64,000 nt of DNA, from assembly GCA_028697015.1 (NCBI GenBank), contig JAQVFW010000001.1:3603-67602 (forward strand), given 5' to 3'. The stretch is from Minisyncoccota bacterium. GTDB lineage: Bacteria > Patescibacteriota > Minisyncoccia > Minisyncoccales > GWA2-38-27. The translations under genes and the position numbers were made by a program. The number at the start of each line of letters is the position of its first letter. The stretch's first letter is position 1. Positions 728-64,000 of the stretch are shown here, one piece after another. Below the pieces are notes generated by a model, which was not told the origin of the DNA, ran no database searches, and saw nothing but the letters and a program-made list of their open reading frames with translations.

Positions 728-2314
728 ATGACTACTCTTAGAGGAGGTCTGGAGGGGAACAACCGTTTTTCTCTGGACCTTGAGACCGTGGCCAAGAAGG
801 CCGCTTCTCAAAAGGAAATCTCTCTGAGGTTTCCTAAAAAAAGCGTTTCTTCCAAGGAGGGGATGGACAGCAAGGAGCTGTCCAGTTACGTCAACGACAT
901 TGCTCAAGGGGCCTATGAGTGGATTTCCACCGTTGCCCAGCCCTTTCTAAGGGAACTTGAGCAGGATATGGTTGAGATCGGACAGGAGGTCTGTCTTGAC
1001 CGGTGTTCTGACGGGGAAGAGACAAGGCAAGAGCGTCAGGTGGACTATGAGTCCACTATCTACGCTCTTCGGAGGTTTTCTCCCCAGAACGACGGAATCC
1101 TTCGCAATGAGGCGGAGATTTCCGGAAGAGGAGCTTTCGTCGAAGCCCTTTGTAAAAGGGTAAGACAAACAACGGAAGTCGCCATTCTCGTTGACGAGAT
1201 CATTTGTTCCGAGGACAAGAAGTCCTTGGAGGCGATTCTTTCGGAAGCCAAGGATGGCCTTGGAAAGGATTCCAATAAAGTTTTTCTTTCCTCTTCGGAC
1301 AAGGAGTCGGACTTCAGGGCTTTCGGAAAGCCCTACAAGGTTGCTGAGTCGGCCTTTGGTCGACATCGTGACTTTGCGGTCCAGAAGCTTTCGGAAGCCG
1401 TTGTTTCCCGTTCTAGGGAGATCGCCTCGGCTTTCAAGGCCGAAGTCCAGAAACAGAAACAGGAGGTTTCTGCCGTCGTCGAGACGGATGTCTCGCCAGA
1501 GGAACTTTTCTTTGGTGACGACGTCGAGGGTAAGACAGCCCGACTCGTTTGGAGGTACCAGGGAAGGTACCAGAACGTGATTCGCGTCCGCCGACAGGGT
1601 GATCGGCTTTACGTTCTTGACGTCGTTGGTCCCGGACCCGAGGAGGCCCTTAAGGAGATGAAAAAGAGGCATTCTGAGCCTCATATTCTTCTCCGGTCGG
1701 TTCTCCATTCTGACGGAGAACACCTCTGTCCTTCCAAGGGTGGGTCTCACTACCTTTTCGGGATGTATATCAAGGAAGATTACATCCTCGCCATGGCCCG
1801 CTGGATCCGGACGGCTGCAGGTTTCTGCATGCCCAATCGGCTCCATTCGGATGACAAGGAAAAGTCCTCCGAAAACGGCAACGGCAACAGTCCACTTGAA
1901 GACGCCGACGGCAAGGAAGCCGTTTCTGCAGAAGTGTTCTACTTCCGCAAGAATGGTGGGGGCGGGACGATTCAGATTGTCCTGCCGGTGGATTTCGTTC
2001 TCAGTCTCCCTGAGGTGAAAAACGAAGACATGGATGTCGTCGCCCCCGAGAGGAAGGTCAGCTTGACTTCTCCCGCAACAATTACGGTCCGTCGGACCGT
2101 TGTCAAGGGAGAGCCCAGAATCGTTGTCGATGAGTGCGACAGCGAAGAGGCAAAGAAGGAGCTTTGTCTTAATGGAATCGTCGGTCCTGCCTGGCAGGAC
2201 GATCCCAAAAAGAAGGGCTGGCAAGGATTGCCGGCACCCCTTCCCTCGATTCTCGCGTTTGGATACAAACAGGCCACTCTCTCTGGAGAGCTCAAGCCAA
2301 ACAAGAAAAACTAG
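728..2314 (+). CDS. orphan 528-aa soluble Arg/Glu-rich protein with atypical high-GC composition
   Basis: Part of ORF 623..2314. ATG at 728 is preceded by AGGAGAAAAAA. It has its own promoter and terminator, no TM segment and no motif I recognise. A hand count gives 32/60 G+C at 1501-1560. Confidence 0.6.
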   Translation: MTTLRGGLEGNNRFSLDLETVAKKAASQKEISLRFPKKSVSSKEGMDSKELSSYVNDIAQGAYEWISTVAQPFLRELEQDMVEIGQEVCLDRCSDGEETRQERQVDYESTIYALRRFSPQNDGILRNEAEISGRGAFVEALCKRVRQTTEVAILVDEIICSEDKKSLEAILSEAKDGLGKDSNKVFLSSSDKESDFRAFGKPYKVAESAFGRHRDFAVQKLSEAVVSRSREIASAFKAEVQKQKQEVSAVVETDVSPEELFFGDDVEGKTARLVWRYQGRYQNVIRVRRQGDRLYVLDVVGPGPEEALKEMKKRHSEPHILLRSVLHSDGEHLCPSKGGSHYLFGMYIKEDYILAMARWIRTAAGFCMPNRLHSDDKEKSSENGNGNSPLEDADGKEAVSAEVFYFRKNGGGGTIQIVLPVDFVLSLPEVKNEDMDVVAPERKVSLTSPATITVRRTVVKGEPRIVVDECDSEEAKKELCLNGIVGPAWQDDPKKKGWQGLPAPLPSILAFGYKQATLSGELKPNKKN

Positions 2315-2338
2315 TTGCCCGTTTGGGTAGCTGGTCAA

Positions 2339-2372
2339 GACGCCGAAAAGGAATTCGGCGTCTGTTTTTTTT
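2339..2372 (+). terminator. intrinsic terminator
   Basis: GACGCCGAA-aaggaa-TTCGGCGTC stem-loop (2339-2362) followed by TGTTTTTTTT. Confidence 0.85.
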
Positions 2373-2462
2373 GAAAAAAATTCTAAGTTTTTATATTTTT
2401 TTAAAAAGAAGAACTTGATTTGAAATTGAAATAATCTTATGCTATGCTATTAATATAAAAAA

Positions 2463-3074
2463 ATGAATATATTTTGGCATACTAAAACATGCGTTGAAAT
2501 AAACGCGGTTCCAAAAAAAGACGGGGCGGTAAATATAATAATAGACCCCTTGAATAAAGAAGAAGCGTCCCGCGGAAAAAAAATGAAGGCAGACGTTTTT
2601 TTGTTTACAAAAAAAGAAAAAAGAAAACAAGAAAATGAAGGCTTTATTATTGACGGTCCCGGAGAATATGAAATAAAAGAAATTTTTATCAAAGGAATTG
2701 AAATCTCTCCTTCTTTAACAATTTACCTTATTACGGCAGAAGACATAACTCTTTGTCATCTCGGATTAATTAATCAGGACGAACTTTCAAATTCTCAAGT
2801 TGAAGAGTTGGGAGACATTGATGTTTTATTTTTACCGGTTGAAGGAGAAGAATGTATTGATGCAAAAAAAGCGGCAAAGATTATGGGACAGCTAGAACCA
2901 AGAATTACCGTTCCGGTAAATTACAAAGAACAGGGAATAAAATCAAAAACAAGCGGATTAAAGTCATTTTTGGATAATTTGGGGATAAAATCTCCTGAAT
3001 CGTCTTCCAAACTTTCTTTAAAGAAAAAAACAATTTTGGAAGAAAATTCAAAGGTTGTTATTTTGACAAGTTAA
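2463..3074 (+). CDS. MBL-fold metal-dependent hydrolase-like protein (UPF0173-like)
   Basis: ORF track. The size and layout (WHTKTCVEI ... DVFLFT ... DVLFLPV ... AAKIMGQLEPRITVPVNY) resemble short beta-lactamase-fold hydrolases common in small genomes. Confidence 0.5.
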   Translation: MNIFWHTKTCVEINAVPKKDGAVNIIIDPLNKEEASRGKKMKADVFLFTKKEKRKQENEGFIIDGPGEYEIKEIFIKGIEISPSLTIYLITAEDITLCHLGLINQDELSNSQVEELGDIDVLFLPVEGEECIDAKKAAKIMGQLEPRITVPVNYKEQGIKSKTSGLKSFLDNLGIKSPESSSKLSLKKKTILEENSKVVILTS

Positions 3075-3090
3075 AGTATCTTTTGCTTTC

Positions 3091-3420
3091 ATGGGATTTT
3101 TAGAAAAAATCAGAAGCAAGCCGAAGAAAACAAGATTAATAATTTTATGGTCGATTATTATTCCCGTAGGAATAATTTTTGCTTTTTTTTGGATTAAGAT
3201 TACGGCAAGCGCTATAAGAGAATTGTCGGCAGTAACTTTTCCACAAACAGAGGAAGAATTCTTTTCTTCAGAAATTTTAGAAGAAAGCATGGAGAGTATG
3301 AAAATGTTTTTTAATGAAGAAGAAATTAAAAAAATACTAGAAGAAGAAGAATTGGAAACAATGTTTGAAAAAGAAGAAGAAAATCAAAAAGAAGAAATAA
3401 AAGAGGAAAATGAAAAATAA
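3091..3420 (+). CDS. membrane-anchored protein with highly acidic C-terminal tail
   Basis: ORF track. One N-terminal TM ([20 protein letters not shown]) followed by a Glu-rich tail. Overlaps the gyrA start by 11 nt. Confidence 0.4.
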
Positions 3421-50617: not shown

Positions 50618-51020
50618 AGGGCTCTGATAAAAAAATTCGACTATTTGTAGTTTTTAAAATTATTTAAAAAATATTCAAAAGTATTTTTTTTGTTTTTTTA
50701 TAGGAGTGGTAATAATTTTTGCTTGTAATTCCGAAAAAGAGATTTTAATGTTAAATTGTTTACAGTAGAAGATATCATATTTGATAGAAATTTCCATTTA
50801 ATTATAATAAAAAAAGGAAGGAATTATAAATAACTATTTTTTAAATTGCTTTTTATCTGAGAAAAACGGATATCTTTTTTAAAAACTTGAAAATGTCATT
50901 TTCGATAAAGAAGGAAAAATAAAAAGAAGGTTCAATTTTAAGATAAAATCACAAACTTTAGATGAACTTTTTTATTTTTGTCTTAACCTGCTTAATTAAT
51001 ATAATTTTTAATTGGCAATA

Positions 51021-53324
51021 ATGCGCGCAAAATCTTTTATATTTCTGAAAATTGTTTATTTTTCTCTGATTGTTTTTATCTTGGAAACTGTTTTTTTCCA
51101 TGTTTTAAACTATATTTATGATTATCTTAATGCAGTTTTGATAATTTCATATACGGTTTTGGGAATTGGCTTAGGAGCATTTATTTCAGGTAGAATTAAA
51201 ATTCCAGAAAAATATTTATTTGCCATTTGTTCTTTAGGAACAGTTCTTTCTTTATATTTGGTTGCTTTTAAAACGATTTTTTTTCCTTCTGGGGGAATTA
51301 CAAATTTTGTTTTTTTCTTTTGTTTTTTATTTCCATCCGTTTATATTTCTAAAATTTATGCTGAAGAGAAAATCGGGCAGATATATTTATTAGATATGGT
51401 GGGCGGATTATTTGGGGTGTTTTTTGTTTTTTTTCTTTATTTTTTTCTTTTTTCTGAATCAATATTTTTTTTGATTTTGCTTATTATTCCTCTGGTTGCC
51501 TTAATTGATATTTCTTTCCAAAAACTAAAGTATGAAAAAATAATAATTTTTATTTTATTATTATTTTTAATTTTGGGTTCAAGCTTGTTTTATAATCAAG
51601 TATTATTTGATAAATATAATCTTTTTAACTTAATTAACTGCAATGGTATAGAAAAGTCGCCGGAAGGAACGGCTAAAATATTTTGCAGAAATGTAGAATT
51701 AATTAAAAGCTATGATAATTTAGTAGGAAGAATAGATATTACTCAAATTACTTCTCTTAACTCTAGCTCGTATACTGTTTCGTATGAAGGGTGGCCAAAT
51801 GATATTTTTCATAAAAAAATACTATCTACAAAAGATGACTATTCAAGTAATAAAAACAAGGAATGGCCTACTCTTGATATTCGTTTCTTGTATGGGGTAA
51901 AAGAAGAACCAGAAATTTTAATCATAGGTTCTGCCGCCCAGGGAATTATTCCTACAATAAGAAAAATTACTCCTTTGGAAAAAATAACCTCAGTTGAAAT
52001 AAATCCAAGCATTATTAAAATAATGAAAGAAGATTTTTTTGAAGAAAGCGGAAGGGCTTATTTAAATTTTACGCCAATTCTGGGAAATGGAATTTCTTTT
52101 TTAAAGTCCAATAATGAAAAGTTTGATATGATAACAATGATGAATGTTCATCCTTACAGAAATATTTCTCATCAAGGGCCTCCGGATTATTTGCATACAA
52201 TTGAAAATTATAGAAATATTTTTAATAGTTTGAGCGAGGAGGGATACCTTATGATTGAAGAGAGACCGGAAACATTGGAATCAAAATTAGCATTATATAG
52301 AGAAATTAATACTATTTGGCATGCTTTAAAAAAAGAAGGCGCTGAAAATCCTTCAAATCACTTTGTAATTTGGTCATGGATGTATGAAAATAAGAAATTT
52401 GAAAAATATAAGCTTTTTTATTTTACAGGAATAGCTGTTTTCAAAAATCCGATTAAAAAAGAATGGGTTGATCCGTGGATTCAAAGACAGAATCTTCGCG
52501 ATCAATTTAACTTGCAATATTTTAATGGTTACAAAAATGAAGAGCTTTCAAAAGAATTTTTAGATTTATTTGCAATGATAGAATCAAATAATTTTAGTTC
52601 TCTTCAAGAGGAAAATTTTGATTCTTCAGTAGTAACGAATAATAGGCCCTTTTTAACTCAATCAACATTAAAAACGCCAAAATTAAATAACTTACTAAAA
52701 GATATTGGTATTCTTACATTGGTTCTTTGGATTATCTTTACAATTCCTTTGATTAGATCTGAAAAAAGAAAGTTAAACATGGCATTAAATATGTACCATA
52801 TTTTAGTCGCTTTTGCTTTTTTCTCTATTCAAATAATTTTATTCCAAGTCTATCAAAATATTTTTATATCACCATCTTTGTCGTTTATATTTGTTTTGGG
52901 CTTTTTGCTATTATTTTCTGGCATTGGAGGATATTTTTCAGAAAAATTTAATTTAAAAAATATTATAATATTTCTAATATCAACGTCTTTAATTGCTGCT
53001 ATTCTTCCTAATTCATTTTATTTTTTTAATATTCATTCTTCTCTTATAAATTTTTTAAGTGTATCTTTTGTTTTAGCTACTGGATTTTTAATGGGATTTT
53101 ATTTTCCTAAAGGATTGAATTTTATCAAGAAAATAGAATCGAAAGAAAAAGTTTATTATTTTTACGCAATTGATGCTGTTGTCTCTTGTTTTGCAGTTCC
53201 TCTTACTTTGTATCTTGGCATAAAAATTGGTTATTTTTCGGTAATTATAATAGGTATTCTTTGTTATGTTTTGGCGACCATTATTCTTTCAATACTAGAA
53301 CTACATGTTAAAGAAAAAATATAA
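51021..53324 (+). CDS. polytopic membrane protein with central spermidine-synthase-like (class I MTase fold) domain
   Basis: About 7 TM helices, then ILIIGSAAQGI...VEINPSI...FDMITMM (aminopropyltransferase-like), then about 6 more TM helices. ATG at 51021 (the track's TTG is at 51012). Confidence 0.55.
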   Translation: MRAKSFIFLKIVYFSLIVFILETVFFHVLNYIYDYLNAVLIISYTVLGIGLGAFISGRIKIPEKYLFAICSLGTVLSLYLVAFKTIFFPSGGITNFVFFFCFLFPSVYISKIYAEEKIGQIYLLDMVGGLFGVFFVFFLYFFLFSESIFFLILLIIPLVALIDISFQKLKYEKIIIFILLLFLILGSSLFYNQVLFDKYNLFNLINCNGIEKSPEGTAKIFCRNVELIKSYDNLVGRIDITQITSLNSSSYTVSYEGWPNDIFHKKILSTKDDYSSNKNKEWPTLDIRFLYGVKEEPEILIIGSAAQGIIPTIRKITPLEKITSVEINPSIIKIMKEDFFEESGRAYLNFTPILGNGISFLKSNNEKFDMITMMNVHPYRNISHQGPPDYLHTIENYRNIFNSLSEEGYLMIEERPETLESKLALYREINTIWHALKKEGAENPSNHFVIWSWMYENKKFEKYKLFYFTGIAVFKNPIKKEWVDPWIQRQNLRDQFNLQYFNGYKNEELSKEFLDLFAMIESNNFSSLQEENFDSSVVTNNRPFLTQSTLKTPKLNNLLKDIGILTLVLWIIFTIPLIRSEKRKLNMALNMYHILVAFAFFSIQIILFQVYQNIFISPSLSFIFVLGFLLLFSGIGGYFSEKFNLKNIIIFLISTSLIAAILPNSFYFFNIHSSLINFLSVSFVLATGFLMGFYFPKGLNFIKKIESKEKVYYFYAIDAVVSCFAVPLTLYLGIKIGYFSVIIIGILCYVLATIILSILELHVKEKI

Positions 53325-55465: not shown

Positions 55466-55517
55466 TTGACAATTTTTTTTGATTTGTTATTATACCTATA
55501 CCTATGGTACAGGTATA
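55466..55517 (+). promoter_or_regulatory. promoter plus 27-bp dyad operator upstream of csoR-like gene
   Basis: TTGACA (55466-55471), 16-nt spacer, TGtTATTAT (55485-55493). The dyad TATACCTaTACC-TAT-GGTAcAGGTATA (55491-55517) has a single mismatched pair. Confidence 0.55.
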
Positions 55518-55528
55518 AATAAAATATT

Positions 55529-55801
55529 ATGACAAACCAAAAGAAAAAGACATTAATTAACATTAAAAAAGCGGAAAGTTTAACGGCAAAAATAATTAAG
55601 ATGTTTGAAAAAGATCAATACTGCATTGATATTATGCAGCAGAATTTGGCTGTTATAGGCCTTTTAAAATCAGCCAATAAAATGCTTATGGAAAATCATC
55701 TTAATACCTGCTTTAAGGTTGCAATGGAAGCGAAAAACGAAAAGAAAAAGCAGGAAATGATTGAAGAAATTTTAAAGGTCATAGTAATGTTTAATAGATA
55801 A
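55529..55801 (+). CDS. csoR: CsoR/RcnR-family metal-sensing transcriptional repressor
   Basis: 90 aa, helical. YC32IDI ... NH57LNTC61 gives the C-x24-H-x3-C ligand spacing characteristic of Cu(I)-sensing CsoR. Confidence 0.85.
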   Translation: MTNQKKKTLINIKKAESLTAKIIKMFEKDQYCIDIMQQNLAVIGLLKSANKMLMENHLNTCFKVAMEAKNEKKKQEMIEEILKVIVMFNR

Positions 55802-55823: not shown

Positions 55824-56588
55824 ATGAATGAAGAAAATAATCAAATAGAAAGCCAAGAAAACAGAGAAAAAGAAAAAACAGTGCAAAAATGGATTTATAT
55901 ATCCATGTTTTTAGTTATTGCTTTTACTCTTTTTATTTCTTTTAACAAGGGGGTTATTTCCTATTCTCCTTCTAATGTTGAGAAAGTAGAAAAATCTGTT
56001 TTATCGCAGGAAAATCAAACTCCAAACATAGAACAGCAATCAAGTGGGGGCGCTGTAATAAATGAAGCGCTACTTGAAATAATACCGACCGGAGTTCCCG
56101 CTGTTTATGGAAACGCTCTTTCAATAAGTTATGACGATGTTTCTGTTAATAATCCAAGGCAAGCAGATGCAACAATTGAGGTAATGGCCAAAATAGACAG
56201 AAGTACTGAACTTTCAGGAAGTAATTTAAATAGGTATATTGATATATTATATAATCAACATGGGGGAATATCCTGTGAATTTTGTTGCGGAGCAAAAGCG
56301 GTAATATTTGAAAACGGATCTGCGGCTTGCGGATGCGCTCATAGCTATGCAATGAGAGGAATAGCAAAATACCTTATTTTGAACACAACCATGACAGATG
56401 AGGAAATTCTTTCTGAGGTTGGCAAGTGGAAAGTTCTTTTCTTCCCGGAGATCCATGTCCGAAAAGCTTCGGCTATGAAGGAAAAAGGCATGGAAATAGA
56501 TTATATTAATTTAACCACTAATGAAAATAGAGGAATTGAAAGAGGAGTTGCCGCCGGAAGCGGAGGATCAATGGTTGGAGGATGTTAA
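55824..56588 (+). CDS. membrane-anchored Cys-rich protein ending in ...GGSMVGGC
   Basis: TM anchor WIYISMFLVIAFTLFISF. Cys/His cluster GGISCEFCCGA-x13-CGCAHS. Gly-rich tail ends MVGGC followed by the stop. Confidence 0.5.
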   Translation: MNEENNQIESQENREKEKTVQKWIYISMFLVIAFTLFISFNKGVISYSPSNVEKVEKSVLSQENQTPNIEQQSSGGAVINEALLEIIPTGVPAVYGNALSISYDDVSVNNPRQADATIEVMAKIDRSTELSGSNLNRYIDILYNQHGGISCEFCCGAKAVIFENGSAACGCAHSYAMRGIAKYLILNTTMTDEEILSEVGKWKVLFFPEIHVRKASAMKEKGMEIDYINLTTNENRGIERGVAAGSGGSMVGGC

Positions 56589-56620: not shown

Positions 56621-57004
56621 ATGAATAACACAATTAAAAATAATATATTTCCAATTACGGTTATTGCTGTTTCTCTTGTTATTTCCGGAATAGTTCTTTT
56701 TTCCGGACCCTCACAGGGAAGAGGGTTTATTTCTCAGGATGAAGCGTTAAAAATTGCTGATGACTTTATAAATAAAAAAATGCTTCAAGGCCAAGTATCG
56801 GCTTCTGTTTCCGATATTTCAGAAGAATCGGGACTTTATAAAATTAATTTATCGGTTCAAGGAAGTCCATTTTCCTCTTATATGACAAAAGACGGAAGGT
56901 TCTTTTTTCCAGAAGGGCTTGATATAGAAAATTTTGAGAATACAACCCCTCCTTCAGCTCCATCTGAAGGGGGAGGGGGTACTGGAATGGTTGGAGGATG
57001 CTAA
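56621..57004 (+). CDS. membrane-anchored small protein ending in ...GGTGMVGGC
   Basis: TM anchor. Small domain (ESGLYKINLSVQGSPFSSYMTKDGRFFFPEG), then PPSAPSEGGGGTGMVGGC followed by the stop. Confidence 0.5.
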   Translation: MNNTIKNNIFPITVIAVSLVISGIVLFSGPSQGRGFISQDEALKIADDFINKKMLQGQVSASVSDISEESGLYKINLSVQGSPFSSYMTKDGRFFFPEGLDIENFENTTPPSAPSEGGGGTGMVGGC

Positions 57005-58162: not shown

Positions 58163-58320
58163 ACATATGAACAAAGATAAAGAGATAAAAAAAGAAAAGG
58201 AGAAGAATAAAAAAGAAGAATGCCTTCTTTGTAGCATTTCCGATAAAACGATAGAAATGTTGGAAAAAAGATCGAACGAAAATTATAAAGAAAAAAAATA
58301 AAAATATAAAAAATACAAAC

Positions 58321-58874: not shown

Positions 58875-59039
58875 ATGTTTAATTTTTTTAAGAAAAAATG
58901 CCTTATTTGCAAAATGGAACTTAAAAAAGGAAAAGATTATCCTGTCTTTTCCGGTAAGAAATTTTGCTCTGATAATTGCATAGAGGAATATAAAAAGGAA
59001 ATAATAAAGATGCAATCGAAAGGCGATTGTTGTCATTAA
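58875..59039 (+). CDS. 54-aa TRASH/YHS-like zinc-ribbon protein ending in CCH
   Basis: Not in the ORF track (under 60 aa). MFNFFKKKCLICKMELKKGKDYPVFSGKKFCSDNCIEEYKKEIIKMQSKGDCCH has the C-x2-C-x19-C-x3-C spacing of TRASH domains. Confidence 0.5.
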   Translation: MFNFFKKKCLICKMELKKGKDYPVFSGKKFCSDNCIEEYKKEIIKMQSKGDCCH

Positions 59040-59358: not shown

Positions 59359-59652
59359 ATGGACAATAGTTATTATTGCCAAATTAATAAAAAAGGATTT
59401 GCTTTGGCCACAAGCGGGGTAATGGGACTAGTTTACATTCTTTGTGCTGCTTTCGTTGCTTTATGGCCCGATTTTTCGCTTCGTCTTTTTGGCTGGCTTA
59501 TGCACTTGGTCAATGTTGAAAAGTTTGCAGGAGACATGGGGATAACTTTTGGCGGATTTTTAGCGGGTCTTCTCCAAGCGGTAATTTACACGTATATCGG
59601 CGCCTATCTTATTGCTTGGCTTCATAATAAATTTTGCAAAGAAAATAAATAA
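59359..59652 (+). CDS. small 3-TM membrane protein
   Basis: ORF track. Contains hydrophobic segments. No motif recognised. Confidence 0.4.
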   Translation: MDNSYYCQINKKGFALATSGVMGLVYILCAAFVALWPDFSLRLFGWLMHLVNVEKFAGDMGITFGGFLAGLLQAVIYTYIGAYLIAWLHNKFCKENK

Positions 59653-59781: not shown

Positions 59782-59928
59782 ATGAAAAAAGAAGAACATA
59801 AAATATTATATAAATGCCCTCAGTACGGGTTTAAATATGAAGAGAAAAAAATGGCCAAAAAATGTGAAGATTGGTGCAGAAAATATAAGACCTGTAATTT
59901 AGAAATAACAAAATATGCTAAAAAATAA
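59782..59928 (+). CDS. 48-aa four-Cys mini-protein
   Basis: Not in the ORF track. MKKEEHKILYKCPQYGFKYEEKKMAKKCEDWCRKYKTCNLEITKYAKK. Its stop overlaps the start of the next gene by 14 nt. Confidence 0.35.
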   Translation: MKKEEHKILYKCPQYGFKYEEKKMAKKCEDWCRKYKTCNLEITKYAKK

Positions 59929-60832
59929 AAAATTCGTCATTATTGGTTTTCTGGCTTCGCTGTTGCTTTTTGCTTTTTATATTTTAATCCTTTCTTTCTT
60001 TGAATCATCCTCTCATGCTTTCTCTCAATTTTCTTTATTTCGCTATTGGATTTCAATTTTAATTATTGGTTTTGGAATACAGGTTGGTCTTTTTTCTTTT
60101 GTCAGGGAAAAACAGAAAACGGCATCCAAAAAAACCCTTTCTGCTTCTTGCGGTATTTCCGCCGGTTCAATGGTTGCTTGCTGTCTTCACCATTTGGCGG
60201 ACATTCTTCCTTTAATAGGCATTTCTGGCATGACTTTGTTTTTTACAGAATATCAGTTATGGTTTATGCTTTTGGGAATTATTTCCAATTTTATGGGAAT
60301 TGCCATAATGCTTGGAATTATAGAAAAGCATAATCTTGCAGGAGGTGTTTTGGCAAAAATGGCTTCATATAGCACAATTAGGACAAGAAGAATTTCCCTT
60401 TCTCTTTCTCTTATTGTTCTTTTTCTTGGCTTTTTCTGGGTTGGTCCTTTGAGTTTTAATTTGGATTTTACTGCAAGCGGAATTTCTAGCGCAAAAAAAT
60501 CAGAAAAGCAATTTTTTCCGGGGAAAACTGATTCTCAGGGAGATATATTATTTGAAGTAACTCCTTTGTCTTTTGAATCCAATAAGCCGCTTGAATTCAA
60601 TATTAAAATAGATACCCATTTTGACTTTCCTGAGTTTGATTTAATGGAAGTGTCTATTTTAGAATACGAAAATGGAAAATGGCATAAGCCGTTAGAATGG
60701 CAAGGACCTTCTATTTCCGGGCATCATATTTCCGGTGTTCTTGTTTTTCCTCCTCTTGAAATTGACGCCAAAGAACTAAGTGTTATAATTAAAGACGAAT
60801 TTATGAGAGTTTTCCGCTGGGAAATTTATTAA
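59915..60832 (+). CDS. membrane protein with intramembrane CCxHH motif and C-terminal soluble domain
   Basis: SCGISAGSMVACCLHHLADILPLIG lies in a TM region. The C-terminal ~120 aa look like a beta-rich domain (ILFEVTPLSF...EFNIKIDTHFD...WQGPSISGHHISGVLVFPP). Confidence 0.5.
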   Translation: MLKNKKFVIIGFLASLLLFAFYILILSFFESSSHAFSQFSLFRYWISILIIGFGIQVGLFSFVREKQKTASKKTLSASCGISAGSMVACCLHHLADILPLIGISGMTLFFTEYQLWFMLLGIISNFMGIAIMLGIIEKHNLAGGVLAKMASYSTIRTRRISLSLSLIVLFLGFFWVGPLSFNLDFTASGISSAKKSEKQFFPGKTDSQGDILFEVTPLSFESNKPLEFNIKIDTHFDFPEFDLMEVSILEYENGKWHKPLEWQGPSISGHHISGVLVFPPLEIDAKELSVIIKDEFMRVFRWEIY

Positions 60833-60837
60833 AAACA

Positions 60838-62268
60838 ATGGAAAAAAGCAAAAAAGAAAAAGAAGCAGTTTATTTTATAAAGGGAATGCATTGTCCTTCT
60901 TGCGAAATTTTTATTGAGAAGGAGCTTTTGAAGTTTAAAGGAGTTAACTTTGCAAATGCTACAGAAAAAGAAGGAAAGGTTTTTATAAAATACGAAGGGG
61001 AAAAACCGAAAAAAGAAGAGCTAAACGATATTCTAAAAGAAAATAACTATTTTTTGTCTGATCTTCCATTTGAAAAAAGTGAAAAAAGGGAAAGCTTTTT
61101 AGGAGCCGTTCTTGTAGCTTTTGTTATTATTGCTCTGTTTTTTTTCTTGCAAAAAACAGGTATTATGGAAATGGCCGATTTTTCTTCACAGTATTCCCTT
61201 TTTATGGTTTTTTTTCTAGGAATTGTGGCTAGCGTTTCAAGTTGCATGGCTCTTATCGGAGGGCTGATATTGTCTCTTTCCAAACAATGGAATAAGGCCT
61301 ATTCAAAAACAAATTCTTTTTCTAAAAAACTTCAGCCCTATGTATTATTCAATTTTGGCAGATTGGTGTCTTATGGATTATTCGGAGCGGTTCTCGGAGG
61401 GCTTGGAAATGTATTTAATATATCTCTTGGTTTTACTTCTTTTTTAGTTTTTATCGTTTCACTGCTGATGATTTTTTTCTCTTTAAAGATGCTGGGATTT
61501 GAATTTCCCGACTTCTTGAAATTTAAAAAAGGAGGATTTTTTAGAAAATTTACAACCAGTGAAAGGAGTTCTGTAAAAAGCCATGCCTGTTTTTTGGGCG
61601 CTTCTACTTTTTTTCTTCCTTGCGGATTTACGATTACGGCCCAGGGACTTGCCTTGATATCTGGAAGCGCATTGCAGGGATTCTTAATTATGTTTTTTTT
61701 CGCTCTTGGAACGGTTCCGGCTCTTTTGATGCTTGGATTTTCAAGCATAAAGTTTTATCAAAATCCGCAATTATCATTGAAGTTTTCAAAAATAGCCGGA
61801 ATATTGGTTTTGTTTTTCGCTTTTTATAACATTAATTCCCAGCTTGTAATTTGGGGAATGCCTAATATTAATAGTTTTAAAATATCAGTATGGGAAAAAA
61901 AAGAAGAGATGAATTTTTCGGAAAAAGAGCAGGTTCTAAAAATGAGTGTTTCGAGCTTTAAGTATAAGCCGAATTATTTTATAGTGAAAGCGGGAGTTCC
62001 GGTCAGATGGGAGATTACAGACGAGGGTATGAGTGGATGCACTAATGCTATTATTTCTAAAGATTTATTTGAAGGGACAATTGATCTTGTAAGAGGAGGA
62101 ACGGCGATAAAAGAATTTATTGTGGAAAAGCCGGGAAGATACGTTTTTTCTTGTTCTATGGGAATGGTTTCAGGAGTGATTGACGTTATCGGCAATACTG
62201 AACAATCTTTATCCGATGATGTTTGCCTTATTGCAGAAAAAGAAAAAATAGAGAAAATTTTGAATTAA
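60838..62268 (+). CDS. HMA domain - DsbD_2/TauE-like membrane domain - cupredoxin-like domain fusion protein
   Basis: N-terminal GMHCPSCEIFIE (HMA). TM core with SSCMALIGG and FFLPCGFT. C-terminal PGRYVFSCSMGMVSGVIDV (cupredoxin-like). Confidence 0.8.
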   Translation: MEKSKKEKEAVYFIKGMHCPSCEIFIEKELLKFKGVNFANATEKEGKVFIKYEGEKPKKEELNDILKENNYFLSDLPFEKSEKRESFLGAVLVAFVIIALFFFLQKTGIMEMADFSSQYSLFMVFFLGIVASVSSCMALIGGLILSLSKQWNKAYSKTNSFSKKLQPYVLFNFGRLVSYGLFGAVLGGLGNVFNISLGFTSFLVFIVSLLMIFFSLKMLGFEFPDFLKFKKGGFFRKFTTSERSSVKSHACFLGASTFFLPCGFTITAQGLALISGSALQGFLIMFFFALGTVPALLMLGFSSIKFYQNPQLSLKFSKIAGILVLFFAFYNINSQLVIWGMPNINSFKISVWEKKEEMNFSEKEQVLKMSVSSFKYKPNYFIVKAGVPVRWEITDEGMSGCTNAIISKDLFEGTIDLVRGGTAIKEFIVEKPGRYVFSCSMGMVSGVIDVIGNTEQSLSDDVCLIAEKEKIEKILN

Positions 62269-62883: not shown

Positions 62884-64000
62884 ATGAATAAAAAAACATT
62901 TAAAATATCGGGAATGCATTGCGCCTCTTGCGCTTCAAACATTGAAAAGGAAGTCAAAAAAGTTTCTGGAGTTTCTTCTTCGAGGGTGGATTTTAACGGT
63001 GGAAAACTTTTTGTTGAAGGAAATGATTTTTCAACTGAGGAATTAAAGAAAAGAACGGAGGATTTGGGTTATGGTTTTTTTTCAGAAGAAGATGGAAATA
63101 AAGAAAATATCGTTTTAAAGGTTGTTGGAATGGATAGCCCTCATTGTGCAGGAATAATTAAAAAGGTTTTAGGGGGATTTAAAGGGGTTAAAAATCCTGA
63201 AATTGATTTTGCCAATGAAAAAGTAAAATTCACTTTTTTCCCAAATGAAAATTCCCTTGCAGATATTGAAAAAGCTATAGAAAAAGAAGGGTATAATGTT
63301 TTTAAGGAGAAAGAGACAAGCGAAGTTGAAATAGAAGAGAGAAGACGAGTTAAAAATACAAAAATAAGAGCAATCCTTGCTCTTGTTTTAAGTATTCCCT
63401 TGATGTTTACAATGATTTTGATGTATTCCGGCAAAATGTTTCCCGGCCAGCTTTTTATTGAGGCGGTTCTTTCTTTTATTGTCGTGTATATTTTAGGATG
63501 GAGAGCCCATGTTTCCGCTTTCAAGGCAGCCAGGAAATTTTATGCCAACATGGATGTTCTTATTTCCCTGGGAACTTCCGCAGCTTTTCTTTTCGGAGTG
63601 GCTGCTTTTTTTATTGATGTTCCTGTTTTCTTTGAAATAGCCGCTTTCATTATGGCTTTCCAGCTTTTGGGAAGGTATTTGGAAGAAAAAGCAAGAGGAA
63701 AGACATCGGAGGCCCTAAGAGAACTTTTAAACCTTGAAGCCAAAACAGCAAGAATATTAATAAACGGAGAAGAGAAAGAAATACCTGTTGAAGAATTGAA
63801 ATTGGGAGATGTTATGATTATCAGGCCCGGGGAAAAAATTCCGACTGACGGCAAGGTAATTGAAGGGCTTTCTTCTGTTGACGAGTCAATGGCAACGGGG
63901 GAATCATTGCCGGTTGAAAAAACACCCGGATCGCAGGTTATTGGTTCTACTCTTAACCAGGAAGGGATATTAAAAGCGGAAGCAGTTAAGGTTGGAAAAG
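62884..64000 (+). CDS. copA: copper-translocating P1B-type ATPase, 5' partial (runs off window)
   Basis: Not in the ORF track because no stop is reached. ATG at 62884. HMA 1 is [12 protein letters not shown] and HMA 2 is degenerate ([12 protein letters not shown]). TM helices and the actuator motif [14 protein letters not shown] follow. Confidence 0.93.

Follow-up and report, generated by a model that had tools for sequence, protein, structure and literature searches.

A stretch of 64,000 nucleotides (nt) from a Minisyncoccota bacterium (contig JAQVFW010000001.1, positions 3,603 to 67,602, forward strand; hereafter the window) contains a copper island that runs from csoR to copA. Here we describe a 305-amino-acid (aa) membrane protein encoded in this island and named below, after its CC-x-HH motif, the CCxHH protein. 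Our data suggest, with a probability of roughly 0.55, that it represents a large and so far uncharacterised family with an intramembrane site for a soft metal, most likely Cu(I), in its four-helix core, and that it takes part in relay or transport of that metal. Passage of copper across prokaryotic membranes is now explained by P1B ATPases, resistance-nodulation-division (RND)/Cus systems, CopD/YcnJ, and the major facilitator superfamily (MFS) transporter CcoA. A family that spans at least 491 species and some 2,000–3,400 sequence clusters, is tightly linked to Cu(I) ATPases, and uses the same donor domains would be a new component of copper homeostasis if it moves or relays Cu(I). Its relevance would be greatest in the small genomes of candidate phyla radiation (CPR) bacteria and DPANN archaea, with their conserved cassette of DUF5676, CCxHH, DUF7128, and CopA genes. 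Moreover, the hypothesis is directly testable, since the family is present in Anaeromyxobacter oryzae Red232, a bacterium that is in culture and whose genome is complete.

The CCxHH membrane protein and its family

The gene and its predicted parts are as follows.

59915–60832, plus strand: 305-aa CCxHH membrane protein, consisting of a four-helix core, a fifth helix that serves as anchor, and an extracytoplasmic beta-sandwich
60158–60211, plus strand: putative ligand stripe of transmembrane helix 3, residues 82–99 (S82, M86, C89, C90, H92, H93, D96, P99), from conservation and helical-wheel angles
60179–60184 and 60188–60193, plus strand: CC codons and HH codons, respectively, within helix 3
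60374–60454, plus strand: fifth transmembrane helix, residues 154–180, which would bring the C-terminal domain outside; missing from members of about 170–190 aa
60524–60829, plus strand: extracytoplasmic beta-sandwich, residues 204–305, with H235 (60617–60619), H270/H271 (60722–60727), W262, G264, and W302

The protein is 100% identical to NCBI entry PHH17_00430, annotated as a hypothetical protein of a Candidatus Pacebacteria (CPR) genome. Its segment SCGISAGSMVACCLHHLADILPLIG (residues 78–102) carries the two adjacent Cys and two adjacent His that the first-pass annotation had placed in a predicted membrane helix, and residues 78–101 indeed form one helix in the AlphaFold2 model. The protein aligns end to end with the CCxHH family and has both signatures of the four-helix core, M-x2-C-C-x-H in helix 3 and G-F-G-x-Q in helix 2. 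The membrane domain is not covered by any Pfam or NCBIfam model, either in this protein or in 95 family members, whose only confident matches are to fused N-terminal domains; the earlier remark that no transporter family could be named is in agreement with this result. A profile search of the Protein Data Bank (PDB) sequences with the family retrieved no relative, its top matches being chance helices of G protein-coupled receptors (E 0.16), and a Foldseek search of the PDB with a transmembrane-only model (predicted local distance difference test score, pLDDT, 84.6; predicted template modelling score 0.77) gave no fold match, with a best E of 3.5. Nothing relevant was found in the literature on DUF5676, DUF7128, CCxHH-type motifs, or CPR copper systems. 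The family appears to be undescribed and to belong to no named family.

It is also widespread. The protein has 102 matches in a search of clusters at 90% identity, and at 50% identity the family comprises 3,401 clusters (E<=1e-3) or 2,129 clusters (E<=1e-10). Of 185,579 species genomes, 491 encode the peptide MVACC[AL]HH, mainly those of DPANN archaea, CPR bacteria, Chloroflexota, and Nitrospirota. The 80 genomic loci retrieved for this study include representatives of Woesearchaeota, Aenigmatarchaeota, Methanosarcinales, Chloroflexota, Nitrospirota, and Patescibacteria, as well as the cultured A. oryzae Red232.

Many of the conserved residues lie on one face of helix 3. In an alignment of 323 sequences, drawn from the 80 genomic loci selected by motif and from 248 protein-search hits not selected by motif, M86, C89, C90, and H92 are conserved in 100% of sequences, S82 and Q56 in 98%, P99 in 97%, N125 in 93%, Q114 in 91%, and H93 and Y113 in 88%; D96 is present in 84%, with N or E in another 12%. 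The CC/HH motif is no chance feature, because C89, C90, H92, and M86 are invariant in all 323 sequences, and the motif noticed at the first pass thus holds among homologues. On a helical wheel, S82, M86, C89, H93, and D96 lie inside an arc of 80 degrees and H92 stands at 60 degrees from C89, so that in the model a polar stripe crosses the bilayer along one side of the helix. Conserved positions outside helix 3 include Q56 on helix 2 and Y113 and N125 on helix 4.

The AlphaFold2 model of the complete protein (pLDDT 84.6) has transmembrane helices at residues 3–29, 43–69, 78–101 (a single continuous helix), 104–138 (kinked), and 154–180, followed by a beta-sandwich at 204–303. The counts of Lys plus Arg are 2.3 in the N-terminus, 2.2 in loop 2–3, and 3.3 in loop 4–5, versus 0.5 in loop 1–2 and 0.0 in loop 3–4. 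For the window protein as well as for the family at large, this charge distribution predicts a cytoplasmic N-terminus and cytoplasmic loops 2–3 and 4–5, which would place the C-terminal domain outside. Independent support for the outside location comes from loci where this domain is a separate neighbouring gene (22 of 69; directly downstream of the CCxHH gene in 18 and directly upstream in four): all the split genes start with a hydrophobic signal or anchor or with a lipobox, and each keeps the T-H and G-G-H-H motifs.

The architecture of the family is modular. About 60% of the retrieved members are 170–190 aa long and consist of the four-helix core alone. Others carry N-terminal fusions to the core, namely HMA, two HMA, YHS, or YHS plus HMBD domains, and once an ICMT/PEMT-like methyltransferase. 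HMA, YHS, and HMBD are modules found at the cytoplasmic N-termini of P1B ATPases, and copper ATPases and CopZ are the best-scoring matches of the fused HMA domains. At the opposite end, the soluble, beta-rich domain with an HH pair (SGHHISG, residues 268–274) recognised at the first pass is predicted to be a beta-sandwich in which H235 is conserved in 99% and H270/H271 in 97% of sequences; W262, G264, and W302 are also kept. A Foldseek search of the PDB with the full model matched this domain only, the best matches being the DUF4426 protein 3uc2 (E 2e-3) and then CrdA of Helicobacter pylori, 9ll2 (E 4e-3, TM-score 0.46), a periplasmic copper protein similar to CopC/PcoC (PMC9182242).

Genomic context and the proposed copper relay

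In the window the CCxHH gene lies in the CsoR/CopA island, as the first-pass annotation stated, between CsoR at 55529–55801 and a Cu(I)-type CopA that starts at 62884. Elsewhere, among the 80 motif-selected loci (median length 9.9 kb), a P-type ATPase is encoded in 28, usually on the same strand and often less than 600 nt away, and 24 of these 28 ATPases have the Cu(I)-type combination CPC+YN+MxxSS. The genes directly upstream of CCxHH genes encode YHS/TRASH mini-proteins (six loci), CsoR, an HMA protein, a cupredoxin-like protein, PadR-TRASH regulators, and, most commonly, DUF5676 (at least eight loci: L011, L012, L013, L017, L020, L035, L052, and L074); the DUF5676 protein may be a subunit or partner of the CCxHH protein. 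DUF411/CopG and cupredoxins also occur in these neighbourhoods, and of the 22 most frequent neighbour clusters not one resembles MerA, MerR, or another mer gene. With regard to the metal-resistance genes that surround the family, context and fusions together point to a soft metal, most likely copper. Genes for ICMT/PEMT-like membrane methyltransferases, of the type fused to the core in P0169, were also seen next to CCxHH genes in L047 (4509–5180, A. oryzae) and L023.

From these patterns we infer that metal binding by the CCxHH protein is likely, and propose the following mechanism. Cu(I) would be passed across the membrane along the helix-3 stripe formed by S82, M86, C89/C90, H92/H93, and D96. 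In the cytoplasm, the metal would be given or taken by modules of the type that serves P1B ATPases, namely the fused HMA, YHS, or HMBD domains, or small TRASH/YHS proteins encoded nearby. The partner on the outside would be the tri-His beta-sandwich (H235, H270, H271), tethered by the fifth helix in the window protein and made as a separate lipoprotein or secreted protein in other genomes. We favour transfer outward, to detoxify the cell or to load extracytoplasmic copper proteins, because the island is of the CsoR type and linked to copA; energy might be provided by proton coupling through H92 and D96. The gene itself belongs to a probably CsoR-controlled copper island that ends in copA.

In some respects the proposed site resembles the transmembrane metal sites of P1B-1 CopA, where two Cys, Met, Ser, Tyr, and Asn also stand in membrane helices and the donor modules are the same HMA, YHS, and HMBD domains. 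However, unlike CopA, the CCxHH protein has no ATPase domains, CC in place of CPC, and additional His, and the two are not homologous. A more ambitious version of the proposal, which we put forward tentatively and consider rather doubtful, is that the family is a prokaryotic ATP-independent Cu(I) conduit, a counterpart of eukaryotic Ctr1, in which an oligomer of four-helix subunits would form a pore lined by a Ser-Met-Cys-His-Asp ladder leading from HMA/YHS modules to the tri-His receiver. Ctr1 is likewise small, with a ladder of ligands on one side of a helix (MxxxM there, S-M-C-H-D here), a His-rich region outside, hand-off to cytoplasmic chaperones, and no use of ATP. The two share no homology and no Pfam match, and the likeness is one of analogy alone. 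If true, such a conduit would be a second, unrecognised membrane route for copper in DPANN archaea, CPR bacteria, Chloroflexota, and Nitrospirota.

Several observations weigh against a role in Cu(I) relay or transport. Free Cu(I) in the cytoplasm is near zero, which is hard to square with a passive exporter, and the best-known examples of vicinal Cys in a transmembrane helix are the Hg(II) importers MerT, MerF, and MerC. Among the neighbours of CCxHH genes are many thiol-redox proteins (DsbD_2, SfLAP/DsbD-like, DsbA, CopG), which leave room for a redox role. Helix 3 has the lowest pLDDT of the model (70–78), and therefore the monomer may not show the working state. The fold matches of the beta-domain are weak (E 2e-3 to 4e-3, TM-score 0.46–0.59). 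Finally, the choice of the 80 loci by motif inflates motif conservation in that subset; alignments built from the protein search only (A1, A2) show the same invariant residues as the set of 323.

The alternatives can be ranked by likelihood, and the most credible of them is copper uptake of the CopC-CopD/YcnJ kind, in which the outer tri-His domain would capture copper and the core would pass it inward to HMA/YHS acceptors or membrane cuproenzymes. Both arrangements have an extracytoplasmic beta-sandwich that binds or would bind copper, paired or fused with a membrane domain and encoded in copper operons; CopCD is also found in resistance operons, and inward transfer would require no energy source, as cytoplasmic chaperones hold Cu(I) tightly. 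Furthermore, CrdA, to which the beta-domain bears a resemblance, is itself CopC-like (PMC9182242). We nevertheless regard uptake as unlikely, given that the gene stands in a CsoR-type island that is derepressed by excess copper, that the family is tightly linked to exporting P1B-1 ATPases, and that no Pfam CopC or CopD match was found: the beta-domain of the window protein has no Pfam match at all at E<=10, CopC (PF04234) included, and a split homologue has none at E<=1. Nor are the details alike, since the CCxHH core has four helices with CC-x-HH in contrast to eight helices in CopD, and the ligands of the beta-domain are three His (T-H ... G-G-H-H) instead of the amino-terminal His site or Met loop of CopC. 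Less likely again is that copper is bound and not transported, the protein being a sink, an anchor, a regulatory or assembly partner of CopA, DUF5676, or the HMA-DsbD_2-cupredoxin protein encoded next to it in the window, or a membrane copper sensor. Four helices are few for a transporter, there is no energy-coupling domain, and the family recurs beside DUF5676 and CopA genes; however, a stripe that spans the bilayer and metal modules on both sides of it exceed the needs of a sink and suit a relay.

The remaining explanations are improbable to various degrees. A transmembrane thiol-redox relay similar to CcdA/DsbD, in which the Cys pair would reduce extracytoplasmic copper proteins such as CopG or cupredoxin, would account for the DsbD_2, SfLAP/DsbD-like, DsbA/thioredoxin, and DUF411/CopG neighbours. 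But adjacent Cys are poor at forming disulfides, and the CCxHH pair is adjacent in one helix, whereas in DsbD and CcdA the two redox Cys stand apart, in helices 1 and 4. Metal binding is favoured by the invariant Met and His and by the fused HMA, YHS, and HMBD domains; no thioredoxin-like fusion occurs among CCxHH members, and no DsbD/CcdA match (PF02683/PF13386) was found in the window protein or in the 95 members. Even less probable is import of mercury or another thiophilic metal as by MerT, MerF, and MerC, which are also small (two to four transmembrane helices), have a vicinal Cys pair inside a helix, and trade a thiophilic metal with the HMA-fold protein MerP; MerT-MerP fusions exist, comparable to the MerP-like HMA fusions of the CCxHH core, where the intramembrane Cys pair is followed by Pro. 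One marginal match to merT_RC607 (E 0.008) was obtained, the only one among the 95 members at E<=0.01; the window protein gives no match at E<=0.1 to MerT, MerC, or MerF models (PF02411, PF11431, PF03203, NCBIfam MerT), and NCBIfam MerTP and MerT_CopZ matches are confined to the HMA domain. In contrast to the mercury proteins, the CCxHH pair lies in helix 3, where Met and His are invariant, the HMA domains face the cytoplasm and not the periplasm, an extracytoplasmic tri-His domain is added, the context is CsoR/CopA instead of MerR/MerA, with nothing like a mer operon gene among the 22 most frequent neighbour clusters, and the neighbouring ATPases are of the Cu(I) type. The least probable origin is a very divergent, truncated cation diffusion facilitator (CDF) that retains helices 3–6 and works as a proton-coupled exporter of divalent metals. 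HMA-fused members do match positions 69–188 of Pfam Cation_efflux (PF01545), the best being P0062 with 25.4 bits against a cut-off of 26.6, and TIGR01297 matches the same region weakly, at 13–14 bits against a cut-off of 82. The topology is compatible and H92-x3-D96 resembles HxxxD (H 100%, D 84%), though a pattern of four residues is no proof of homology. However, no match was obtained for the window protein or for most members, the PDB profile search retrieved no CDF at E<=10, and Foldseek with the transmembrane-only model none. Helices 1–2 are missing, Cys ligands are foreign to CDF proteins, and in place of six transmembrane helices and a cytoplasmic C-terminal domain the AlphaFold2 model has only four or five helices and lacks a cytoplasmic domain. 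We do not file the family under CDF, since this link finds support neither from the window protein nor from the sequence-profile and fold searches of the PDB.

The overlapping mini-ORF and the DUF7128 family

Immediately upstream of the CCxHH gene lies a small open reading frame (ORF).

59782–59928, plus strand: mini-ORF of 48 aa, a divergent and probably decaying member of DUF7128 (PF23447)

The first-pass annotation described it as a four-Cys mini-protein translationally coupled to the 305-codon ORF. Its coordinates are correct: the mini-ORF starts with ATG at 59782, ends with TAA at 59926–59928, has 48 codons with Cys at 12, 28, 32, and 38, and overlaps the CCxHH gene by 14 nt (59915–59928). 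It is also predicted by public gene callers (NCBI PHH17_00435, hypothetical protein). A single-sequence search yielded three relatives, and the profile of a ten-member mini-ORF family retrieved 1,270 clusters, most of which, among the matches listed, bear a precomputed PF23447 annotation. DUF7128 proteins have five invariant Cys in the pattern C-x2-C-x12-C-x3-C-x5-C, and Tyr19, Ala25, Glu29, and a C-terminal SCN-x-EIT motif are conserved as well.

The mini-ORF thus has real homologues in DUF7128, and the window copy itself looks degraded. Its codon 15 (TAC, 59824–59826) encodes Tyr where 119 of 119 relatives have Cys, which leaves it with four of the five invariant Cys. It has no match to the PF23447 model at E<=0.1, and with Tyr15 reverted to Cys scores 15.5 bits; close homologues reach 21.5–24.1 bits against the cut-off of 25.7. 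Judged by these sequence comparisons, membership in DUF7128 holds at the level of the family. In contigs of sister strains from two other samples, L090 and L091, which are 99% identical to the window over a 221-nt aligned stretch around the mini-ORF, Cys15 is kept, and the run of seven A at 59845–59851 is shortened to six (L090, 3001–3120; L091, 397–516). The resulting frameshift cuts the product to 39 aa, with loss of three of the five Cys; a homopolymer assembly error is possible, though the same six-A run is present in both assemblies. Because two independent lesions, Cys15Tyr and the frameshift, are found in two close lineages, decay of the gene in the source species is suggested.

The conserved partner of DUF7128 is a different gene. 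In seven of 11 contexts outside the window, DUF7128 stands directly upstream of copA, and the distance from its end to the copA start is –3 to +27 nt in L001, L014, L018, L020, L026, L086, and L087. By contrast, no DUF7128 gene was found directly upstream of the CCxHH gene in any of about 78 loci or in the other DUF7128 contexts. In Woesearchaeota the order DUF5676, CCxHH, YgaP-like 66-aa protein, DUF7128, and CopA recurs; the two families therefore occur in common islands without forming a coupled pair. The mini-ORF and the CCxHH gene are not a conserved coupled unit, and we reject the mini-ORF as a dedicated partner of the CCxHH gene. Its position in the window, three genes from copA, is atypical, and it is probably a degenerate DUF7128 gene that overlaps the CCxHH gene and is no functional partner of the protein. 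A reading of the mini-ORF as a short TRASH/YHS domain was also rejected, since hhalign comparison of the profiles (A3 vs A4) gave a probability of 2.2%. One DUF7128 gene (L088/L089, 4001–4240) lies away from copA and adjoins reverse transcriptase and bAvd genes, an arrangement resembling a diversity-generating retroelement.

The position of DUF7128 genes, directly upstream of copA or overlapping it, is that of archaeal CopM (TRASH) and bacterial CopZ genes; in Sulfolobus, copM and copA share 11 bp and are co-transcribed (PMC3595675). Unlike CopM, DUF7128 has its own Cys pattern and a profile without TRASH/YHS similarity, and the window copy differs further from CopM and CopZ in that it is not beside copA and is one Cys short. 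Thus an orphan Pfam family gains a context, as a CopA-associated mini-protein with five Cys in the CopM/CopZ position.

Other genes of the copper island

The island comprises 15 genes from csoR to copA, all on the plus strand, in the order csoR (55529), a 254-aa Cys-rich protein, a 127-aa protein, DUF1573, SfLAP/DsbD-like, a 44-aa ORF, DUF411/CopG, a TRASH-like 54-aa protein, SHOCT, DUF5676, the mini-ORF, CCxHH, an HMA-DsbD_2-cupredoxin fusion, cupin, and copA. The following features were delineated in addition to those described above.

55466–55801, plus strand: start of the island, with a promoter-like site (55466–55493), the palindrome ATACCT-N7-AGGTAT (55498–55516), and csoR (55529–55801)
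58875–59039, plus strand: 54-aa TRASH/zf-FLZ-like Cys protein with a C-terminal CCH; in L039 and L048, homologues are the immediate upstream neighbours of CCxHH genes
59359–59652, plus strand: DUF5676 two-helix membrane protein; genes of this family repeatedly precede CCxHH genes directly, in Woesearchaeota and at other loci
60838–62268, plus strand: HMA + DsbD_2 + cupredoxin fusion, which begins 5 nt past the CCxHH gene
62884–64000, plus strand: copA, 5' part, encoding a P1B-1 Cu(I) ATPase that has CPC + YN + MxxSS as well as two HMA domains; continues past the window end

The best promoter-like site, upstream of csoR, is strong and sigma-70-like, TTGACA-16-TATTAT with an extended –10. It is followed, just upstream of csoR, by the palindrome ATACCTATGGTACAGGTAT, the sole ATACC-N-GGTAT site in the window, where 0.06 would be expected by chance. 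The palindrome, which we take to resemble known CsoR boxes, is probably the CsoR operator of the entire csoR-to-copA string; the G/C-tract pattern of CsoR boxes (ACCCC...GGGGT) is absent from the window. The 770-aa ORF at 51012–53324, whose product is spermine-synthase-like, was rejected as a candidate CopA; CopA begins at 62884.

Some minor observations concern other products of the island. The fusion protein at 60838–62268 combines a cytoplasmic HMA domain, a DsbD_2 membrane domain, and a C-terminal cupredoxin-like domain, and a similar protein is encoded near the DUF7128-copA pair in L087. One homologue of the 54-aa TRASH/zf-FLZ-like protein, also ending in CCH, is encoded in the copA locus L001. 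The 254-aa (55824–56588) and 127-aa (56621–57004) proteins share a C-terminal G-x-M-V-G-G-C, and a small protein in L003 ends in PGMVGGC. The family of the 254-aa protein, which has a CEFCCG...CGC motif and no Pfam match, is represented in 18 of the 80 CCxHH loci and may comprise extracytoplasmic proteins with a so far unrecognised relation to copper and a conserved Met/Cys tail at the C-terminus. Finally, the 44-aa Lys/Glu-rich ORF with a CxxC pair, predicted by public gene callers at 58167–58301 between the SfLAP-like and DUF411/CopG genes, may encode another small Cys protein of the island.

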